64,000 nucleotides of DNA from the NCBI RefSeq assembly GCF_964213995.1, contig NW_027590135.1, forward strand, positions 1,054,001 to 1,118,000. The letters run 5' to 3'. The number at the start of each line of letters is the position of its first letter. The first letter of the stretch is position 1. The position numbers and the translations under genes are program-made. Positions 3,579 through 56,388 of the stretch are shown one piece after another. The notes under the pieces were generated by a model. That model did no database searches and was not told the origin of the DNA. It was given only the letters and a program-made list of their open reading frames with translations. Origin of the DNA: Mustelus asterias. Lineage: Eukaryota.

Positions 3579-3670
3579 GACCGCATGGCCTAATGGATAA
3601 GGCGTCTGACTTCGGCAATCGTAGTGATGATGCTATCAGAAAATTGCAGGTTCGAGTCCTGTTTTATGCA
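3579..3670 (+). tRNA. tRNA-Arg(TCG) with 19-nt intron (3616-3634); 3' acceptor strand decayed, probably a pseudogene
   Basis: GACCGCATGGCCTAATGGATAAGGCGTCTGACTTCGG [CAATCGTAGTGATGATGCT] ATCAGAAAATTGCAGGTTCGAGTCCTG closely matches vertebrate tRNA-Arg(TCG) once the insert is removed. Confidence 0.85.
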
Positions 3671-3999
3671 GAAATCTGTTCGAAGTTCCGGAAAAAAACG
3701 AAATGTCCTTCTATAGCTGAAAGCTCTGCATTTTCTTGCAAACATTGCCGGGCGCTATCTGAGAATGCACTTCCTTGTTGTTTTCTTCACTCAATTTTTT
3801 AATCTCATTATTTTATTCTCCTCCCAAGAAATCAATCTTATCTTTGAGATCTTAATAAATCATTGATGCTCCCGAATGGAGCAACAGGCTTTGCAGCAAA
3901 TGGTTTAACCAAATTCTGTGGAGAGAATTCTCACATCCTCAGGAAGAGGTTTAATAATGAGCTGAATGAACTGTTTCTGTTTACAGGGATGAAAGGTTA

Positions 4000-4345
4000 T
4001 GTCACTGGGCTGGTAATCCAGAGGCGTGCACTAATCTTTGGGAAGACGGAGTAAATCCCACCATTGGTGAAATTTAATTCATTGATTAAATCAATCTGGA
4101 ATTGAAAGCTAGTATCAGGGATAGCGGCCTTGAAACTGTCGCCGATTGTTGTAAAACCTCATCTGGTTCATCAGTGCACTTTAGATAAAGAAGTCTGCCC
4201 TCCATGTGACTGCAGACCCAGAGCAATGAGGGTGACTCTTACCTGCCCTCTGAAATGGCCGAACAAACCACTCTCAGTTGATGGACAATTAGGGAAAGGC
4301 AACAAATGCTGGTCCAGCAGGCGACACCAACAGCCCATAAAAAGT
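4000..4345 (+). mobile_element. Deu/SacSINE1-like tRNA-derived SINE
   Basis: GATTGTTGTAAAACCTCATCTGGTTCA...TGTGACTGCAGACCC...CTGCCCTCTGAAATGGCC...CAATTAGGGA, shared with the copy at 49865-51185. Confidence 0.55.
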
Positions 4346-5224
4346 AGAATAATTATGTAGAAAGAGAATGGCCTGGTAACGGATTGAGAAACTGGATGCT
4401 TCTTCTCCTGCAATAACAAGGCTGAGGGGGGTCTGATGCTGGGCTGTAAATTAGTGAAAGATTTTGAAAAATTTCATTTCGATAAAATAGGCCAGAGAAG
4501 GGCAGATAAAAATGTATCTCACTCTCATTGATGGCTGGTGGTTTTAGCACAATGATGTACATGCGACCAGCGTATCAGCGAATCCTAAGAGTGTGAGAGA
4601 AATTCCATCAGTAATGCTTCCCCGCCATCCTCCAGATTGAAGCGAGGCAGCATTCATGCTGGTGACTGGGAGGAGTTTGTTACTCATCGTTGAAAATGGC
4701 CAAAACATTTCCCTCAATCTACAGCACGCTTTTATGAGGCAGAATGGCGGGAGAGAAGAAAGTAACAGAGAAGAAAGCTCCATGGGCCGAGAATGGGCCT
4801 GTTCACTCACTTGAAAACCCATGGCAGTAATTCACGGCCCTGACTGGGTGTCATCCTCAAATCAAGAGACAGACAACGATAACAACTGCTTGTTACAAAA
4901 TAACTATCATAAAAAAGCCACGTCCAACATTAATATTGTTAAAACTTCCCGATAGTCTGAACAATTCTTGTTTATTTATACCTCTCTGGTTTGTGAGCTT
5001 CGCTCTTCCTGGGTGTGTTGGCCGCAACCCAGAACCTCAACAGAGGGAAGACGTTCACATCAAGTGAGGGTGTTCCAGGAATAGGTCAATATGGAGAATT
5101 AATAAAGGGGTGTGATTGGATAGACCTCGTAATTTAATCATTAAATCCACTTTAGAAATCAATATTAAATTATCATTGAGTCGGCAGCATTTGCAATTTG
5201 CTATCGTCCAGAGCATTGGCAGTT

Positions 5225-5307
5225 GGCTCGTTGGTCGAGGGGTATGATTCTCGGTTAGGGTAATATTAGTATGCCAGTGCTTCCGGGTTTAAAACCCGGA
5301 CAAGCCC
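5225..5307 (+). tRNA. tRNA-Pro(AGG) with 11-nt intron (5261-5271); several substitutions, probably a pseudogene
   Basis: GGCTCGTTGGTCGAGGGGTATGATTCTCGGTTAGGG [TAATATTAGTA] TGCCAGTGCTTCCGGGTTTAAAACCCGGACAAGCCC gives 36+36 nt exons of tRNA-Pro. Confidence 0.8.
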
Positions 5308-5480
5308 AGCGATCGTTTATTGAATCGGGAGCAAGTTTGAGATCATGAGAAATCATTGCAGTGAATATGTCACTGCAGAACACGAGAAGAAACGATCACC
5401 AGATTTAAATTTCGTTTGACCATCCAAAGGTACTGAAGGATATGACACGGGAAATTTGCGAAGAGACTGGAAATAATTTT

Positions 5481-5775
5481 GGGTGGCACAGTGGTTAGCA
5501 CTCCTGCCTCACAGCGCCAGGGTCCTACGTTCAATTGCGGTCTCGGTTCACTGTTTGTGTGCAGTTTGCACGCTCTCCCCATGTCTGTGTGGCTTCCCTC
5601 CCACAGTCCAAAGATGTGCGGGCTTGGTTGATCGGCCATACTAAATGGACCAGATTGTCAGCGGGATCAGCAGGGTAAATGAGCGTTACTGAACTAGGAC
5701 CTGGGTGGGATTGTAGTCGGTACACACTCGATGCACCAAATGTCCTCCCTTCTGTACTTTCGGCATTCTACGATT
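5481..5775 (+). mobile_element. HE1-like V-SINE
   Basis: GGCACAGTGGTTAGCACT...CCTCACAGCGCCAGGG head, CCCACAGTCCAAAGATGTGC core, CR1-like tail. Confidence 0.85.
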
Positions 5776-6584
5776 GGAGACGATTAGCACAGCTGCATTT
5801 AATGGAAAGCTGGATAAGTGTTGGAAGGAGAATGGATTTCAGAGACAAACAGATAATGTTACATGAAATGGTTGGGTGGAGGATCGGGTCGAGCAGTTTA
5901 AGAATTCGAAAAAATGGTCCCAATTTCACTTAGGTATCTTATTTATTGAATCACTCCAGATCTACAAAGTGTCTGAGAGACTGGGAGACAATTAATAATT
6001 CCCCAATCACAGGATGAACAAAACACAGGGTGATACAGAATGAATCATTCACTCATATACATCCACAGAGATTGCCAGATAGACAATCAATTCCACACTC
6101 AAATCCTGCACCACACACTACGTGCGACAGAATGGTTATCACACCCATACACACAGAATAGTTACAGCACAGGAAAAGATCATCCGGCCCTTTGTGTCTG
6201 GGAGTTGGCTTTTATATAGAAGCTCAGTTATCCCAGCCCACATCATGAAAGCATGGCAGCAAAACTTGAAGAAGACACAATATATGTCGTTAAGTAATTT
6301 GTGGAGAGTGCGGAAGGAGCTTGCAGATAGCTACAGACAGGTTTTGTACATGTGCAGACACCTGGCAACTGGAATATAATGTGCAGTTATTCACTTTGGC
6401 AGGAAGATAACAAAATCAGATTATTACTCAAATATAGAACGGCTGCAGATTTCCAAGGTGCAGAGGGATCTCGGTGCTCGAGTGCACGAGTCACAAATAA
6501 TTAGTATGCATGTTCAGCAAGGAATAAAAATGGTTAATGGAATATTTGCTTTGTTACAAGCATTTAAGTGTGTGAGAAAAGAAT

Positions 6585-7345
6585 GTAAGAAGTTTAACAA
6601 CACCAGGTTAAAGTCCAACAGGTTTATTTGGTAGCAAAAGCCACACAAGCTTTCGGAGCTCTCAGCCCCTTCTTCAGGTGAGTGGGAATTCTGTTCACAA
6701 ACAGAGCTTATAAAGACACAGACTCAATTTACATGAATAATGGTTGGAATGCGAATACTTACAACTAATCAAGTCTTTAAGAAACAAAACAATGTGAGTG
6801 GAGAGAGCATCAAGACAGGCTAAAAAGATGTGTATTGTCTCCAGACAAGACAGCCAGTGAAACTCTGCAGGTCCACGCAACTGTGGGAGTTCCAAATAGT
6901 GTGACATGAACCCAATATCCTGGTTGAGGCCGTCCTCGTGTGTGCGGAACTTGGCTATCAGTTTCTGCTCAGCGACTCTGCGCTGTCGTGTGTCGCGAAG
7001 GCCGCCTTGGAGAACGCTTACCCGAATATCAGAGGCCGAATGCCCGTGACCGCTGAAGTGCTCCCCAACAGGAAGAGAACAGTCTTGCCTGGTGATTGTC
7101 GAGCGGTGTTCATTCATCCGTTGTCGCAGCGTCTGCATAGTTTCCCCAATGTACCATGCCTCGGGACATCCTTTCTTGCAGCGTATCAGGTAGACAACGT
7201 TGGCCGAGTTGCAAGAGTATGTACCGTGTACCTGGTGGATGGTGTTCTCACGTGAGATGATGGCATCTGTGTCGATGATCCGGCACGTCTTGCAGAGGTT
7301 GCTGTGGCAGGGTTGTGTGGTGTCTTGGTCACTGTTCTCCTGAAT
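6585..7345 (-). mobile_element. Penelope-like element 3' fragment: GIY-YIG endonuclease end, 3' UTR and hammerhead motif
   Basis: Peptide QTLRQRMNEHRSTI...PVGEHFSGHGHS...RRVAEQKLIAKFRTHEDGLN and an upstream NVVYLIRC..C..YIGET frame; terminal repeat shared with the fold-back elements. Confidence 0.9.
6644..6680 (-). ncRNA. minimal type I hammerhead ribozyme motif
   Basis: CAC CUGAAGA A GGGGC-UGAGA-GCUCC GAAA GCUU GUG. Confidence 0.7.
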
Positions 7346-7901: not shown

Positions 7902-7992
7902 CAACGCTGGTGGGTCTCGAAACCACAACCTTTGAACGGCTAACTTGCTATCATGTAGAAGCCCAACGCGCTTTCCATTGCGCCACAGAGCT
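7902..7992 (-). tRNA. tRNA-Arg(TCT) with 18-nt intron (7938-7955), diverged
   Basis: AGCTCTGTGGCGCAATGGAAAGCGCGTTGGGCTTCTA [intron] GTTCAAAGGTTGTGGTTTCGAGACCCACCAGCGTTG matches the vertebrate intron-containing Arg(TCT). Confidence 0.85.
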
Positions 7993-49864: not shown

Positions 49865-51185
49865 AAATTCATTTGTGGGACATGGGCATCGCTGGCCAGC
49901 ATTTAATGCACATCCTGAGTTGCCCTTGTTCAGAGGACAGTTGAGTCAACCACAGTGCTGTGGCTCTGGAGTCACATGAAGGCCATACCGGGTAAGGACG
50001 GCAGATTTCCTCCCTAAAGTGAACCAGATAGGACCCTTGCTGTTTGTCATTTTCATAAATGACCTGGATGAGGAAGTGGAGGGATGGGTTGGTAAGTTTG
50101 CTGACGACACCAAGGTAGGTGGTGTTGTGGATAGTTTGGAGGGATGTCAGAAGTTGCAGCGAGACATAGATAGAATGCAAGACTGGGCGGAGAAGTGGCA
50201 GATGGACTTCAACCCGGATAAGTGTGTAGTGATCCATTTTGGCAGATCCAATGGGATGAAGCAGCAGTATAATATGAAGGGTACCATTCTTAGCAGTGTA
50301 GAGGATCAGAAGGACCTTGGGGTCCGGGTCCATAGGACTCTTAAATCGGCCTTGCAGGTGGAGGATGCGGTCAAGAAGGCGTACGGCGTACTAGCCTTCA
50401 TTAATCGAGGGATTGAGTTTAGGAGTCGGGAGATAATGCTGCAGCTTTATAGGACCCTGGTTAGACCCCACTTGGAGTACTGCGCGCAGTTCTGGTCACC
50501 TCATTACAGGAAAGATGTTGAAGCCATTGAAAGGGTGCAGAGGAGATTTACAAGGATGTTGCCTGGATTGGGGGGCATGCCTTATGAGGATAGGTTGAGG
50601 GAGCTTGGTCTCTTCTCCCTGGAGAGACGAAGGATGAGAGGTGACCTGATAGAGGTTTACAAGATGTTGAGAGGTCTGGATAGGGTAGACTCTCAGAGGC
50701 TATTTCCAAGGGCTGAAATGGTTGCTACGAGAGGACACAGGTTTAAGGTGCTGGGGGGTAGGTACAGAGGAGATGTCAGGGGTAAGTTTTTCACTCAGAG
50801 GGTGGTGGGTGAGTGGAATTGGCTGACGTCGGTGGTGGTGGAGGCAAACTCGTTGGGGTCTTTTAAGAGACTTCTGGATGAGTACATGGGATTTAATGGG
50901 ATTGCGGGCTATAGATAGGCCTAGAGGTAGGGATATGATCAGCGCAACTTGTGGGCCGAAGGGCCTGTTTGTGCTGTGGCTTTCTATGTTCTATGTTCAG
51001 ATAGGATTTTCTGACAATCGACAATAGCTTCACGGTCATCAGTAGATTCTTAATTCCAGATATTTTTTCATCAAATTTAAATTCCATCAACTGCTGTGGC
51101 AGGATTCGAACCCGGGTCCCCAGAACATTAGCTGAGTTTCTGGATTAATAGCATAGTGATAATACCACTCGGCCATCACCTCACC
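49865..51185 (-). mobile_element. Deu/SacSINE1-like SINE split by a CR1 insertion
   Basis: tRNA-like head at about 51095-51185; body resumes at 50024-49865. Confidence 0.6.
50034..50997 (+). mobile_element. young 5'-truncated CR1 with open RT C-terminus and 9-bp TSD
   Basis: PLLFVIFINDL...KFADDTK...NGIAGYR*; (TTCTATG)n tail; TSD CAGATAGGA at 50025-50033 and 50998-51006. Confidence 0.95.
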
Positions 51186-52196
51186 AGTGTACAAACATCA
51201 TTAACTGGTAGGTAAAGTAATAAAGCTAATAGTCTATGAAGGATTGGAATTTGTGTTACAGTTGCAGAAAACTCTGTTCAGACCCCATTTAGATCACTGT
51301 GTTCATCCCAGGAAGGTTAGATTGGCCTTGGAGTGGGAGCAGCAGAATTTCACCAGTGATGCCAGACTCAAATGATGAGGACAGATTGCAAAGACTAGTC
51401 CTGTAATAACCTGAACATGGAAGATTAAGTGGTGATGTGAGTGAGATGTTTACAATGAATGATTTGATAGGGTGCAGAGAGATAAACTGTTAGCTCTGAA
51501 TGGGGGAACCTCACCGTAAAATGAGATGAGACATTTCAGGGATAATTTAGACCATAAGACATAAGAATATAAGATATAAGAATTAGGCCACTCGGCCGTT
51601 TGAGTCTGCTCTGCCAATGAAGCATAGCTGATATTTTTCTCATCCCCATTGTTCTGCCTTTTCCCCATAATCCCTGATCCCCTTATTTAATTTCAGGGAA
51701 AGCTTCTTGATAGAGGATGGTGGGAATGTTGAATTGTCCACAAACAATTGTTAAAGCTGAGTTTATCAGGAAATTAACAAGCTGAAGATGACAAGCAGCC
51801 AGTAACATGAAGGTGGATAGTCAGAGTTTCTGTAGGTATTTAAACAATAAAAGAGTTAAAGTGAGCATTGGTTCTATCGAAAGTGCATCTGGGGAATTGA
51901 TAATGGAAAATAGGATATTGACAAATGAATTGAACAGGTAGTTTTCATTTGTGTTCACTATAGAGGACACAAGTAACATCCCAAAAATAGCTGGAAATCA
52001 GCAAATGGAAGGGTGGGAGGAACTCAGGAAAATTGCAATCACCAGAGAAAGTGGTATTGAGCAAATTGTCGGATCTGGAGGCTGACAAATCCCTGCGTCC
52101 GAATGGGCTTCACACTCAGGACATGAAATCAGTGGCTAATGAGATAGCTAATGCATTTGTTTTAATTTTGCAAAATTCCCTGGCTTCAGAGAATGT

Positions 52197-52382
52197 GATG
52201 TGGAGATGCCGGCATTGGACTGGGGGTGGGGCGGGGGGGGAGGGGGGGGGGGGTGGTAAGCACAATAAGAAGTCTCACAACACCAGGTTAATGTCCAACA
52301 GGTTTATTTTACTACAAAGTAAACCTTGTGCTACCAAATAAACCTATTGGACTTTAACCTGGTGATGTGAGACTTCTCATTG
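52197..52382. mobile_element. fold-back Penelope-derived element lacking the hammerhead core, 12-bp TSD
   Basis: TSD TTCAGAGAATGT at 52185-52196 and 52383-52394; inverted terminal motifs. A second terminal fragment lies at about 52490-52620. Confidence 0.8.
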
Positions 52383-53074
52383 TTCAGAGAATGTTCCATT
52401 AGAATGAAATATAGAAAGTGTAACACCTTTATTCAAAAAGAGATGGAGAGAGAAAACAGGGAACTACAGGCTGTTACCCTGACAGCTGTTCGACGACGAA
52501 GGGGCAGCCTGTTCCGAAAGCTGGTGGCTTTTGCTACCAAATAAACCTGTTGGACTTTAACCTGGTGTTGTCAGACTTCTTCCTCTGTTTACCCCAGTCC
52601 AACGCCAGCATCTCCACATCTTTTTCTGGGTGGCAGGATATGTCGAATGGTGTATCTGTACCAGGGCCACAACTTTTTACAATTTATAAAAATGACTTTG
52701 ATGAAGGGACTGAAGATACGGTTGTTAAATTTGCTGACAGCATAAAGATTGACAAGAAATTTATTGCAAAGTGTACGTAAGGAGGCTACAAAAGGAAACA
52801 GAAAAGTTACGTGAATTGGCAAAATGTGGCAAATGAGGCAAATTGCGAGGATAAAACAGTGGATGAAAAATTGAGACTTTCAAAGTTGAGATGAATAAGG
52901 TGCCAGCCAGGTACATAGCCACCAGAAATATCCTGGTAGGATATTTAGAGTCACATGGACAAAAATGTCTGTCTCTCCTGCTCTGTTTGATTGATGGATT
53001 GAAAATGTGTCTGCAACTATTTCTGCTCTCTGAGACCGTTGAACTAATAAGATGTCTGTGTGTCAGGAATTGGT

Positions 53075-54275
53075 TGCATTCTTGGACATACACATCTCCA
53101 TCAAGGACGGTCACCTCAGCACTTCACTGTACCGCAAGCTCATGGATAACCTCATGATGCTCCACTTCTCCAGCTTCCATCCTATCCACGTTAAAGAAGC
53201 CGTCCTCTGTGGACAAGCCCTCTGTATACACAGGATCTGCTCAGATGAGGAGTGTTGCAACAGACACCTACAGACGCTGAAAGATGCCCTCATAAGAACA
53301 GGATATGGTGCTCGACTCATCGGTCGACAGTTCCGATGTGCCACAGAAGACAAACACAGGACACGATAGACAGAGTACCCTTCATTGTCCAGTACTTCCC
53401 CGGAGCGGAGAAGCTACGACACCTTCTCCGGAGCCTTCAACATGTCAAGTATGAAGACGAACATCTCGCCAAGGCCATCCCCACACCCCCACTTCTCGCC
53501 TTCAAACAACCGCATAACCTCAAACAGACCATTGTCTGCAGCAAATTACCCAGCATTCAGGAGAACATTGACCACAACACCACACAACCCTGCCACAGCA
53601 ACCTCTGTAAATGTGCCGCATCATTGACACTGATGCCACCATCTCACGTGAGAACACCATCCACTACGCACATGGTACATATTCTTGCGAGTCGGCCAAT
53701 GTTGTCGACCTGATACGCTGCAGGAAAGGATGTCCCAAGGCATGGCACATTGAAAAGACTATGCAGACGCTATGACAACGGATGAATGAACACCACTCAA
53801 CAATCGCCAGGCAGGAGTGCTTCCTTCCTGTCGGGGTACAGTTCAGCAGTCATGGGCATTCAGCCTCTGATCTTCGAGTAAGCGTTCTCCAAGGTGGCCT
53901 TCACGACACATGACAATGCAGAATCACGGAGCAGAAACTGATAGCCAAGTTCCGCACACATGAGTACGGCCTCAACCGGGACCTTGGGATCATGTCACAC
54001 TATCTGTAACCCCCACAACTTGTCTGCGCAAAATATCAATAACTGTCCTGGCTGGAGACAATACACACCTCTTCAACCAGTGCTTGGCCCTCTCTCCACT
54101 TACACTGTCTGTAATTTTAAGACTTGATTACCTGTAAAGACTCGCATTCTAACCATTATCTTGTAAACTGAGTTTGTGCCTGTATATGCCCTGTTTGTGA
54201 ACCCATCTCCTCACTCACCTGAAGGAGCCTGAGTCTCCGAAAGCTTGTGCTGCCAAATAAACCTGTTGGACTTTG
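53075..54275 (+). mobile_element. Penelope-like element fragment (RT C-terminus, GIY-YIG, 3' UTR), disrupted
   Basis: VAFLDIHISIKDGHLSTSLYRK, LHFSSFHP, IHRICS, PLLAFKQPHNLKQ; homologous to 6585-7345; core-deleted hammerhead at 54216-54249. Confidence 0.9.
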
Positions 54276-54791
54276 ACAAAACATCAGTAAACAAATCAGA
54301 AACAGATCAATCCACCGTGACAAGAACACCATCTCTGACTCCCTGCTGCCAGGAAGCAGCCCTTTCACTGATCCTGTGAGCTTATGTGTTAAATCTGTAT
54401 GGTCTTGAGAGAAAAGGGACAATCTTTATCAGAATGGAATAAAGTCTGAGTTTGCACAGATGGTTATTTGCTGCACAAAAAATGGCGCAAATGATGAAAT
54501 TATTGATTAACAACTGAAATCAGAACCTGGGTTCCAGATATTAACTATTAATAAAAAGCAGCAACTTGCATGCATTAAAATACTGCCTGTGACAATACTG
54601 TCGTAATGTGGATGGTGTATTCGCCTGATGAATTCCTCTGTATCTGCTGCGAGACTGATGGGGTCTATTTACTATCGCACACAGGGGGAACTACGGATTG
54701 ATAAAACAAAGCGGGAAACAGCTGGCCTGTGAATAGCACCGCAGCATCTGAGGGACAGACAATAGATCGCCCTTTTCCAGAAAAAGTGAGT

Positions 54792-54807
54792 GGCTCTGAA
54801 AAGAGCC
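54792..54807 (-). promoter_or_regulatory. histone 3' stem-loop (H2A copy 2)
   Basis: Reverse complement GGCTCTTTTCAGAGCC. Confidence 0.95.
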
Positions 54808-54838
54808 TTTGGGGTTATCAGATTAAAGAATGGCCGCT

Positions 54839-55228
<390 letters not shown>

Positions 55229-56336
55229 TTACACAATCTCACAAACACTTTCACAAAGAATGCTGAAATCCACTCCCTTTCGCTTCTCTTATAGCTCCGG
55301 GAGGAATGGAGGTGCGGACATTGCTGATTGGTCACTTTGTTGCTGCCTCTCAGCATCTTGTTCATATGACCAATCAGAAATCTGCTTAACTCACCAATCC
55401 GGAGAGCCCACGGAGTGAGGGCGGAAAATAACGGCGCCAAAATCTCAGATTCCAACCGATTTCATTTCAAACTGTAAAAGCCGCCAAAGCGGAAAAGAAC
55501 AAGAGTTTCGGAAATTATACGAATAGGTAATGGTTAATTAATTTTGAGTAATGTAAGAATCTCCCTTTCTCTCCTTCCCCAGTCTATAGTTAACCTGTAT
55601 CTGGCAGTTTCTGATTTTCAGCCTGGGTTTTTCGGAAAATAAGTCGAAAATAACAAAATTTTCACGATTCATTTTTGAAAAGTTCGCAGATGTATTTATA
55701 AAACAAGAAATACATTTCAAATAAACTCTCAATAATTAACTGTCTAACAACAAAGTGTTTAAAACATCAGTCGGTGTTTGCACCATTTCACATTTTATCC
55801 CAAGTTGCAGATTTGCTTTTAGAATCCTGGATCCATTCGGGGTTAATCTCGGCCCTTTTTAAAACTCGAACTCGCCGCCAGAAAGTCTCATTGACATCGT
55901 TCTGTAAACGGACGGGATGTTCTCCATATTCGTGAGAATCAAGAGGGGAGTGAACATTTTCGGTGTAAATTGACCAGTGCCGAGACGGAGGTTCCTGCAA
56001 CAACCGGGGCGGAGAGGGAATAAACTGATCGATTATTAAGACCAAACTGGAACAGAATTGGAAGCTGACACATTTGCTCCATTCGCTCTCTCTCTCTCTC
56101 TAAAGTCGGGGAAACGGGTCGAAATGGGCCTCTGAGATCTAAGTGCAGAGGCGGTCGGAAACCAATTAATTAATTAATGAAACATTATCAATCAGACGCT
56201 GGGCGATCAACTTGCATTACTCAGTACCTATCATTGATCAACAGTAAAACAACAATTAGATTGTTCGAGACGCTTCAGAGTGAAAGATTAATTGAAACTA
56301 AATGGATGATACAGCTTTTGCAGGGAGATTGTGGGT

Positions 56337-56352
56337 GGCTCTTAAAAGAGCC
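56337..56352 (-). promoter_or_regulatory. histone 3' stem-loop (H2B remnant)
   Basis: Reverse complement GGCTCTTTTAAGAGCC, then ACCCA and AAAAGCTG. Confidence 0.95.
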
Positions 56353-56388
56353 GTTGTGTTTGGGGTGTTTTTCAGTCCATGGGGAGTT

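Follow-up and report, generated by a model that had tools for sequence, protein, structure and literature searches.

The tRNA-Pro(AGG)-like copy found in the window, the 64,000-nt stretch of the Mustelus asterias genome that was analysed (contig NW_027590135.1), is very probably a decayed gene that was duplicated together with its surrounding block. On the same reading, the gene belongs to a large family of tRNA-Pro genes with introns, from which it likely inherited its 11-nt insert as a genuine TSEN-type intron. This explanation was built on the observed position of the insert, the size of the family, the kept helix between anticodon and intron, the damage in the copy, and the neutral divergence of its duplicates. 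The Pro intron family is real and large, and it is apparently unpublished. In a literature search with limited coverage of subscription papers, shark introns in Pro or Arg-TCG genes were not named in any paper found.

Layout of the locus

The copy was read on the plus strand as a tRNA-Pro(AGG) composed of two 36-nt exons, which flank the 11-nt insert TAATATTAGTA after G37 (Table 1). The boundary of the insert can be slid by one base, since a T lies on both sides. This layout agreed with the first-pass annotation of the DNA, and the insert was found in 32 of 32 aligned close copies. As all of these copies carried it and intact Pro genes had inserts at the same site, the insert was not a chance event. 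The pairing that had been proposed between intron positions −6 to −3 and U32–G35 is also possible in the window copy, as U·G, U-A, A-U, and G·U.

The neighbouring tRNA-Arg(TCG) pseudogene was a truncated member of the Arg-TCG family. At 7902–7992 on the minus strand lay a damaged gene for Arg-TCT, a type already known to be spliced, with an intron of 18 nt. Four histone 3' stem-loops lay near tRNA-Ser and tRNA-Gly genes at 44483–56357, forming a tRNA/histone cluster as described for elasmobranchs.

Table 1. Features at and around the tRNA-Pro(AGG) copy (window coordinates)
Feature	Position	Strand	Detail
5' exon of tRNA-Pro(AGG) pseudogene, positions 1–37	5225..5260	+	carries U13G, C31G; G37 at 5260
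Anticodon AGG	5257..5259	+	
11-nt intron, canonical 37/38 position	5261..5271	+	−6 to −3 at 5266–5269; kin to 18-nt Pro-AGG introns
3' exon, positions 38–73	5272..5307	+	G41C, A44U, G46C, C48U, C56U, U60A, G68A
Damaged B box / T-loop	5286..5296	+	C56U at 5290
Interrupted T-run, likely decayed Pol III terminator	5316..5321	+	T-runs unbroken here in near-intact L071, L072
Duplicated block around Pro gene	3661..6586	.	95–98.5% identity to many copies; minimum extent (3.2-kb loci compared)
Neighbour tRNA-Arg(TCG) pseudogene	3579..3661	+	19-nt intron at 3616–3634; 3' acceptor strand mostly missing
tRNA-derived SINE, 3' of Pro gene	5477..5775	+	which we take to be HE1-type

The intron-bearing tRNA-Pro family

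A census with exact core motifs, allowing an insert of 8–25 nt after G37, was made across the genome. The idea of a Pro intron would have had little standing if no other Pro gene carried an insert; 175 genes with AGG, TGG, or CGG anticodons carried one at 37/38, against 10 without, although these copy numbers may include allelic or duplicate contigs. Among the 100 of the 175 matches listed, 56 were TGG, 32 AGG, and 12 CGG, with inserts of 13–18 nt. The intronless matches were six TGG, three AGG, and one CGG, and a relaxed pattern added one more.

Sixty intron-bearing loci were examined, a non-random set made up of the first 30 returned and others chosen for distinct introns. The exons were perfect in 19 and changed in 41. 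Perfect exons together with a T4 run within 30 nt occurred in 9 of the 60, versus 7 of the 10 intronless loci. In these seven intronless loci the T4 run lay 2–3 nt downstream, and all three anticodons were represented; because intact intronless genes exist for each, splicing need not be essential. A large TGG subfamily had no nearby T4 run. Divergence was 0.058 at exon positions outside the search motifs, 0.112 and 0.122 in the flanks, and 0.201 in the introns (219 non-independent pairs from 52 loci), a pattern in which gene conversion could also have homogenised the exons.

The short Pro introns were related to the long Pro-AGG introns (z 6.0) and to the introns of no other isotype. The intron of the window copy was unrelated to the Arg-TCG introns (z 0.1), in line with the first reading, which had found it unlike the intron of its neighbour, and an origin of the Pro introns by copying from Arg-TCT, Arg-TCG, or Tyr introns was unsupported (z between −1.8 and 1.6).

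A divergent Pro-AGG pair, L086 and L087 (L381:880–969 and 2641–2730, G000:C19), had unrelated 18-nt introns, adjacent T-runs, and near-perfect exons. U20C was seen in these two genes and in no other of the 70 loci examined, and is usable as an exon marker. Judged by sequence, the pair are the best candidates for old functional intron-bearing genes. Anticodons were also found exchanged within single intron lineages, at L212, L073, and L074–L078: a TGG-type intron sat in a CGG gene, and TGG and CGG anticodons occurred with short introns of AGG type. At L082:1367–1750, decayed Tyr-body, Pro, Arg-ACG-like, and Thr genes were arranged head to tail in about 400 bp.

Several dispersed intron-bearing copies had only a few flank bases in common with the cluster genes, followed by an abutting SINE. 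The 5' end of a tRNA-derived SINE lay 7–30 nt after the dispersed Pro genes L072, L073, L080, L083, L084, L085, L112, and L237. Such loci are likely chimeric retrocopies of a pre-tRNA and a SINE, or may represent SINE insertions behind tRNA genes.

The anticodon–intron helix

The pairing of positions 32–35 with −3 to −6 reached 3.68 of 4 across 56 distinct Pro introns. The controls gave 1.91 ± 0.13 in 2000 shuffles (maximum 2.32) and 1.39–2.14 in six other registers. The A-I pair of this helix, 32:−3, was formed in 50 of the 56 introns and is U32·G in the window copy. In introns of at least 17 nt, 34:−5 was paired in 42 of 47 (U-A 21, A-U 13, C-G 4, U·G 4), and in short introns in only 5 of 9. 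The covariation at position 34 came from about three related subfamilies and therefore represents few independent events. The helix was weaker in Arg-TCG, with 2.93 of 4 in 14 introns against 1.76 ± 0.24, and a second register there scored 2.79.

Other isotypes

Arg genes with extra length gave 171 matches. Among the 100 of these listed, about half had a TCG body with inserts of 16–20 nt, most of the others were TCT, and none was ACG. Intronless Arg matches were 79 ACG and one TCG, and the intronless state of Arg-ACG genes in the same contigs supports a real intron family. The Tyr/Lys-type search returned 91 insert matches, of which 90 had a Tyr body and one was a SINE fusion, and all 63 Leu/Ser-type matches had a Leu-CAA body. 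On inspection, no tRNA with a 37/38 insert was present among the 46 matches of Gly-TCC/Val/Asp/Glu/His type or the three of Ala/Cys/Gly-GCC type. A "Cys-GCA with intron" called by relaxed ARAGORN was rejected as a new isotype, being a Tyr-body gene with a changed anticodon.

Across the groups covered (Pro, Arg, Tyr/Lys, Leu/Ser, Gly/Val/Asp/Glu/His, and Ala/Cys types), Pro and Arg-TCG were thus the only additions to the introns already known in Tyr, Leu-CAA, and Arg-TCT. The wider tRNA-intron repertoire suggested for cartilaginous fishes stood for this genome, with 175 Pro genes against 10 and Arg-TCG behaving alike, but in a narrow form, since just these two were added among the groups searched.

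Two arrays of known spliced types were observed. At G000:C7:40238220–40356618 (L119–L145), about 80 intron-bearing tRNA-Tyr(GTA) genes were repeated in tandem every 1,445 bp or so, and a run of Arg-ACG genes came after them. About 50 intron-bearing Leu-CAA genes were arrayed at G000:C13:57609861–57755027 with a spacing of 1.1–2.5 kb.

Reads and present-day use of the family

None of the 21 sequencing runs listed was a useful RNA run, and the share of words from an intact Pro family member did not exceed 0.09 in any RNA run. Word shares of 0.07–0.17 were obtained in runs of the coded organisms B–F and were not assignable to the intron. For one intact gene, many contigs in four runs, from organisms A–D, matched the 5' flank and covered 26–28 of its 28 bins, which indicates a common locus family and not a common intron. 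In unlabelled metagenomes, the intron was present in 0 of 34 matches with near-identical exons among the matches listed, which makes a weak control. The 23 intron-bearing Pro metagenome matches listed all differed from the shark Pro exons at more than three positions.

It is possible, if on balance doubtful, that the introns were once functional and the cluster genes are now largely silent amplified DNA, with about 10 intronless genes on chromosome-scale contigs supplying all tRNA-Pro. This account shares its view of the origin with the main explanation and parts from it only over whether the genes are used today; the repertoire would then be a fossil with no effect on TSEN load. The perfect intronless loci with close terminators for all three anticodons, the exon changes in the majority of the intron-bearing loci examined, the TGG subfamily without a nearby T4 run, and the low word shares in the RNA runs all speak for it. 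Against it stand the exon divergence below that of the flanks, the nine intron-bearing loci with perfect exons and a terminator, the C19 pair with its unrelated introns, near-perfect exons, and adjacent T-runs, and the single intronless match for Arg-TCG.

A candidate spliced retrocopy

L110 was an intronless Pro-TGG gene on a chromosome-scale contig. It resembled an intron-bearing TGG subfamily over the whole gene, 4 nt of leader, and 43 nt of trailer, and the alignment had a single large gap, which was exactly the 18-nt intron. After this trailer the sequence joined a reverse-transcriptase-like fragment (Pfam RVT_1, E 0.0031, below the curated cut-off). The 4-nt leader and the trailer were absent from the other nine intronless Pro loci. 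A search for an intronless gene with an intact 3' end and an L110-type trailer gave no match, a pattern that L110 itself misses by one substitution. The simplest reading of this single case is a LINE-made copy of a precursor that had been spliced before its ends were trimmed. With a leader match of 4 nt, L110 suggests fossil evidence for precise splicing of the intron-bearing subfamily.

U6/LINE chimeric retrocopies reportedly consist of a DNA copy of a Pol III transcript joined to part of a LINE (PMC4476161). L110 likewise appears as a Pol III transcript fused to a LINE fragment, but its passenger would be a pre-tRNA without its intron. The chimera may have been formed by a template switch.

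The retrocopy–LINE junction was present as a 354-bp inverted duplicate (96%) at L110:799–1152 and 1515–1866. The duplicate starts exactly at the first base of exon 2, which is the 3' splice site, either by chance or as a copied splicing intermediate.

It is unlikely that L110 is simply an intronless gene of old standing, or a mosaic whose 5' part came from an intronless gene and whose 3' part came from an intron-bearing one. The case is a single one, the Pro exons are near-identical throughout, so that a recombination point would be invisible, and the inverted duplicate nearby begins at exon 2. These points favour such readings, whereas the likeness ends 4 nt upstream and, downstream, 43 nt away at the reverse-transcriptase fragment, and neither the leader nor the trailer recurs in the intronless loci, with no match to the pattern of an intact 3' end followed by the trailer.

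Damage in the window copy

L113, an intact intronless Pro gene of the same genome, was used as the reference for exon damage. Compared with L113, the window copy had nine exon substitutions, U13G, C31G, G41C, A44U, G46C, C48U, C56U, U60A, and G68A. Two of the five anticodon-stem pairs, C29-G41 and C31-G39, were broken and now read C29-C41 and G31-G39, and the acceptor pair C5-G68 had become C5-A68, so the cloverleaf stems were not intact. The tertiary pairs G15-C48 and G19-C56 were also broken. With stem and elbow pairs lost, the copy lacked the L-shaped mature domain used by the TSEN ruler, which the 19 perfect-exon family members would keep. The B box was damaged by C56U, at a base which we take to have a role in the tRNA B box, and by U60A. 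The downstream T-run was interrupted, and no run of four T was found in the 3' flank. The A box, the T stem, and most of the acceptor stem were intact.

The cloverleaf score of the copy was −10.6 kcal/mol versus −28.1 kcal/mol for the intact gene. The copy was called neither by ARAGORN at default settings nor by Rfam at the gathering score or E ≤ 5. Relaxed ARAGORN gave a Leu-TAG identity, which was a miscall; it misassigned several intact relatives too. Minimum-energy folds were set aside because they returned no cloverleaf even from intact genes. With nine exon changes, broken pairs, and no T4 run, a working tRNA was not confirmed, and the window copy probably gives no tRNA.

Copies of the locus

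The Pro gene was searched against the 3.68-Gb genome, and 40 of 322 candidates were scored, so the resulting count is a lower bound. Matches at 95–100% identity to the window gene occurred in at least 32 places, some on contigs that may be allelic. All of the aligned copies had C31G, G41C, and C56U in common, and their common flank extended over kilobases on one or both sides, which indicates that they arose by DNA-level duplication. They were neither dispersed nor set in unrelated flanks, as SINEs or retroposed repeats would be. Pairwise divergence in 30 copies was 0.036 for the gene versus 0.031 and 0.033 for the flanks, so the gene was no more conserved than its surroundings. Eight sister copies at 82–83% identity resembled them in their flanks but were damaged at other places.

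When the whole genome was searched by pattern for an intact anticodon arm with an insert of 8–12 nt, there was one match, itself carrying G37A, and the 11-nt subfamily therefore appears dead in this assembly. The window gene is thus apparently a pseudogene of a subfamily extinct in this assembly. Two dispersed loci, L071 and L072, had 11-nt introns and only four and three exon changes, with a T-run and then a SINE, and their likeness to the window was limited to the gene and a few flank bases. Although the flank matches are short, the two may be retrocopies that date from a time when the ancestral gene was still undamaged.

The possibility that the window copy is a functional tRNA-Pro(AGG), or that the 32 copies are kept for a non-translational role (small RNAs, chromatin boundaries), draws on the high copy number, the surviving A box, T stem, and most of the acceptor stem, and the intron helix that can still form, but it is highly improbable given the broken anticodon-stem and tertiary pairs, the low cloverleaf score, and a gene that diverges no more slowly than its flanks. 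It is barely credible that the insert is an ordinary, never-spliced insertion in a tRNA pseudogene or tRNA-derived repeat: the window copy is degenerate and multi-copy and the genome holds many tRNA-like SINEs with insertions, but inserts of differing sequence and length (11–18 nt) all occupy one fixed site, a single helix register is preserved with covariation at the anticodon, and L110 is without exactly the intron.

Comparison with known systems

In humans, TSEN and RTCB splice the tRNAs of four families, Tyr(GUA), Ile(UAU), Leu(CAA), and Arg(UCU) (PMC10275265, PMC12168002, PMC10485636), and the intron-containing genes for all four number 28 (PMC12168002). The shark families resemble the human ones in a single short 37/38 intron, an anticodon–intron helix with the 32:−3 pair, and intron sequences that vary among members. 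They differ in isotype, since Pro with three anticodons and Arg(UCG) are not among the human types that these papers list, in number, with 175 Pro genes here, and in the intact intronless genes that stand beside intron-bearing ones for every Pro anticodon.

In yeast, tRNA-Pro(UGG) genes contain introns and lineage-specific intron gain by single isodecoders is described (PMC4090602). The canonical introns in Pro tRNA genes are a likeness to the shark family, whereas the yeast exons are fungal and differ, and the intron is found in all members of a yeast family (PMC4090602).

The human tRNA database is said to hold a low-scoring prediction of an intron-bearing Pro-AGG gene.

Proposed pathway

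In the known pathway, an L-shaped precursor with an anticodon–intron helix is cleaved by TSEN at a measured distance and joined by RTCB (PMC10485636, PMC10275265). By analogy, the intact family members appear to have what this pathway needs, and the window copy does not. Intact ancestors would have been transcribed by Pol III from internal A and B boxes. The pre-tRNA would have adopted the L shape with intron positions −3 to −6 paired to 32–35. Cutting at 37/38 by the TSEN ruler and exon joining by RTCB would then have left a mature tRNA identical to that from the intronless genes. Function may have been lost once in the 11-nt subfamily, and the dead gene would then have been carried along passively as tRNA/histone cluster DNA was duplicated in multi-kb segments.

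The broader reading is that sharks gained introns in Arg(UCG) as well as in all three Pro isoacceptors, that they amplified these genes to the point where splicing now supplies a large part of both kinds of tRNA, and that retrocopies keep processing intermediates. Drawn from genomic sequence, it is offered tentatively, with not quite an even chance of being right.

Implications

The four human spliced types are usually taken as the vertebrate set. The window locus adds little beyond marking a dead subfamily. The reason for tRNA introns and for their gain is an open question in the field, and the intron-bearing and intronless tRNA-Pro genes form a natural paired test of the effect of an intron on I34, m1G37, U34, or output. 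If the gain were dated by comparing sharks, rays, and chimaeras, it would be a direct case of intron gain in animals. If the broader reading is true, sharks would be vertebrates whose TSEN substrates differ from the usual set, with one mature tRNA produced in parallel from genes with and without an intron.
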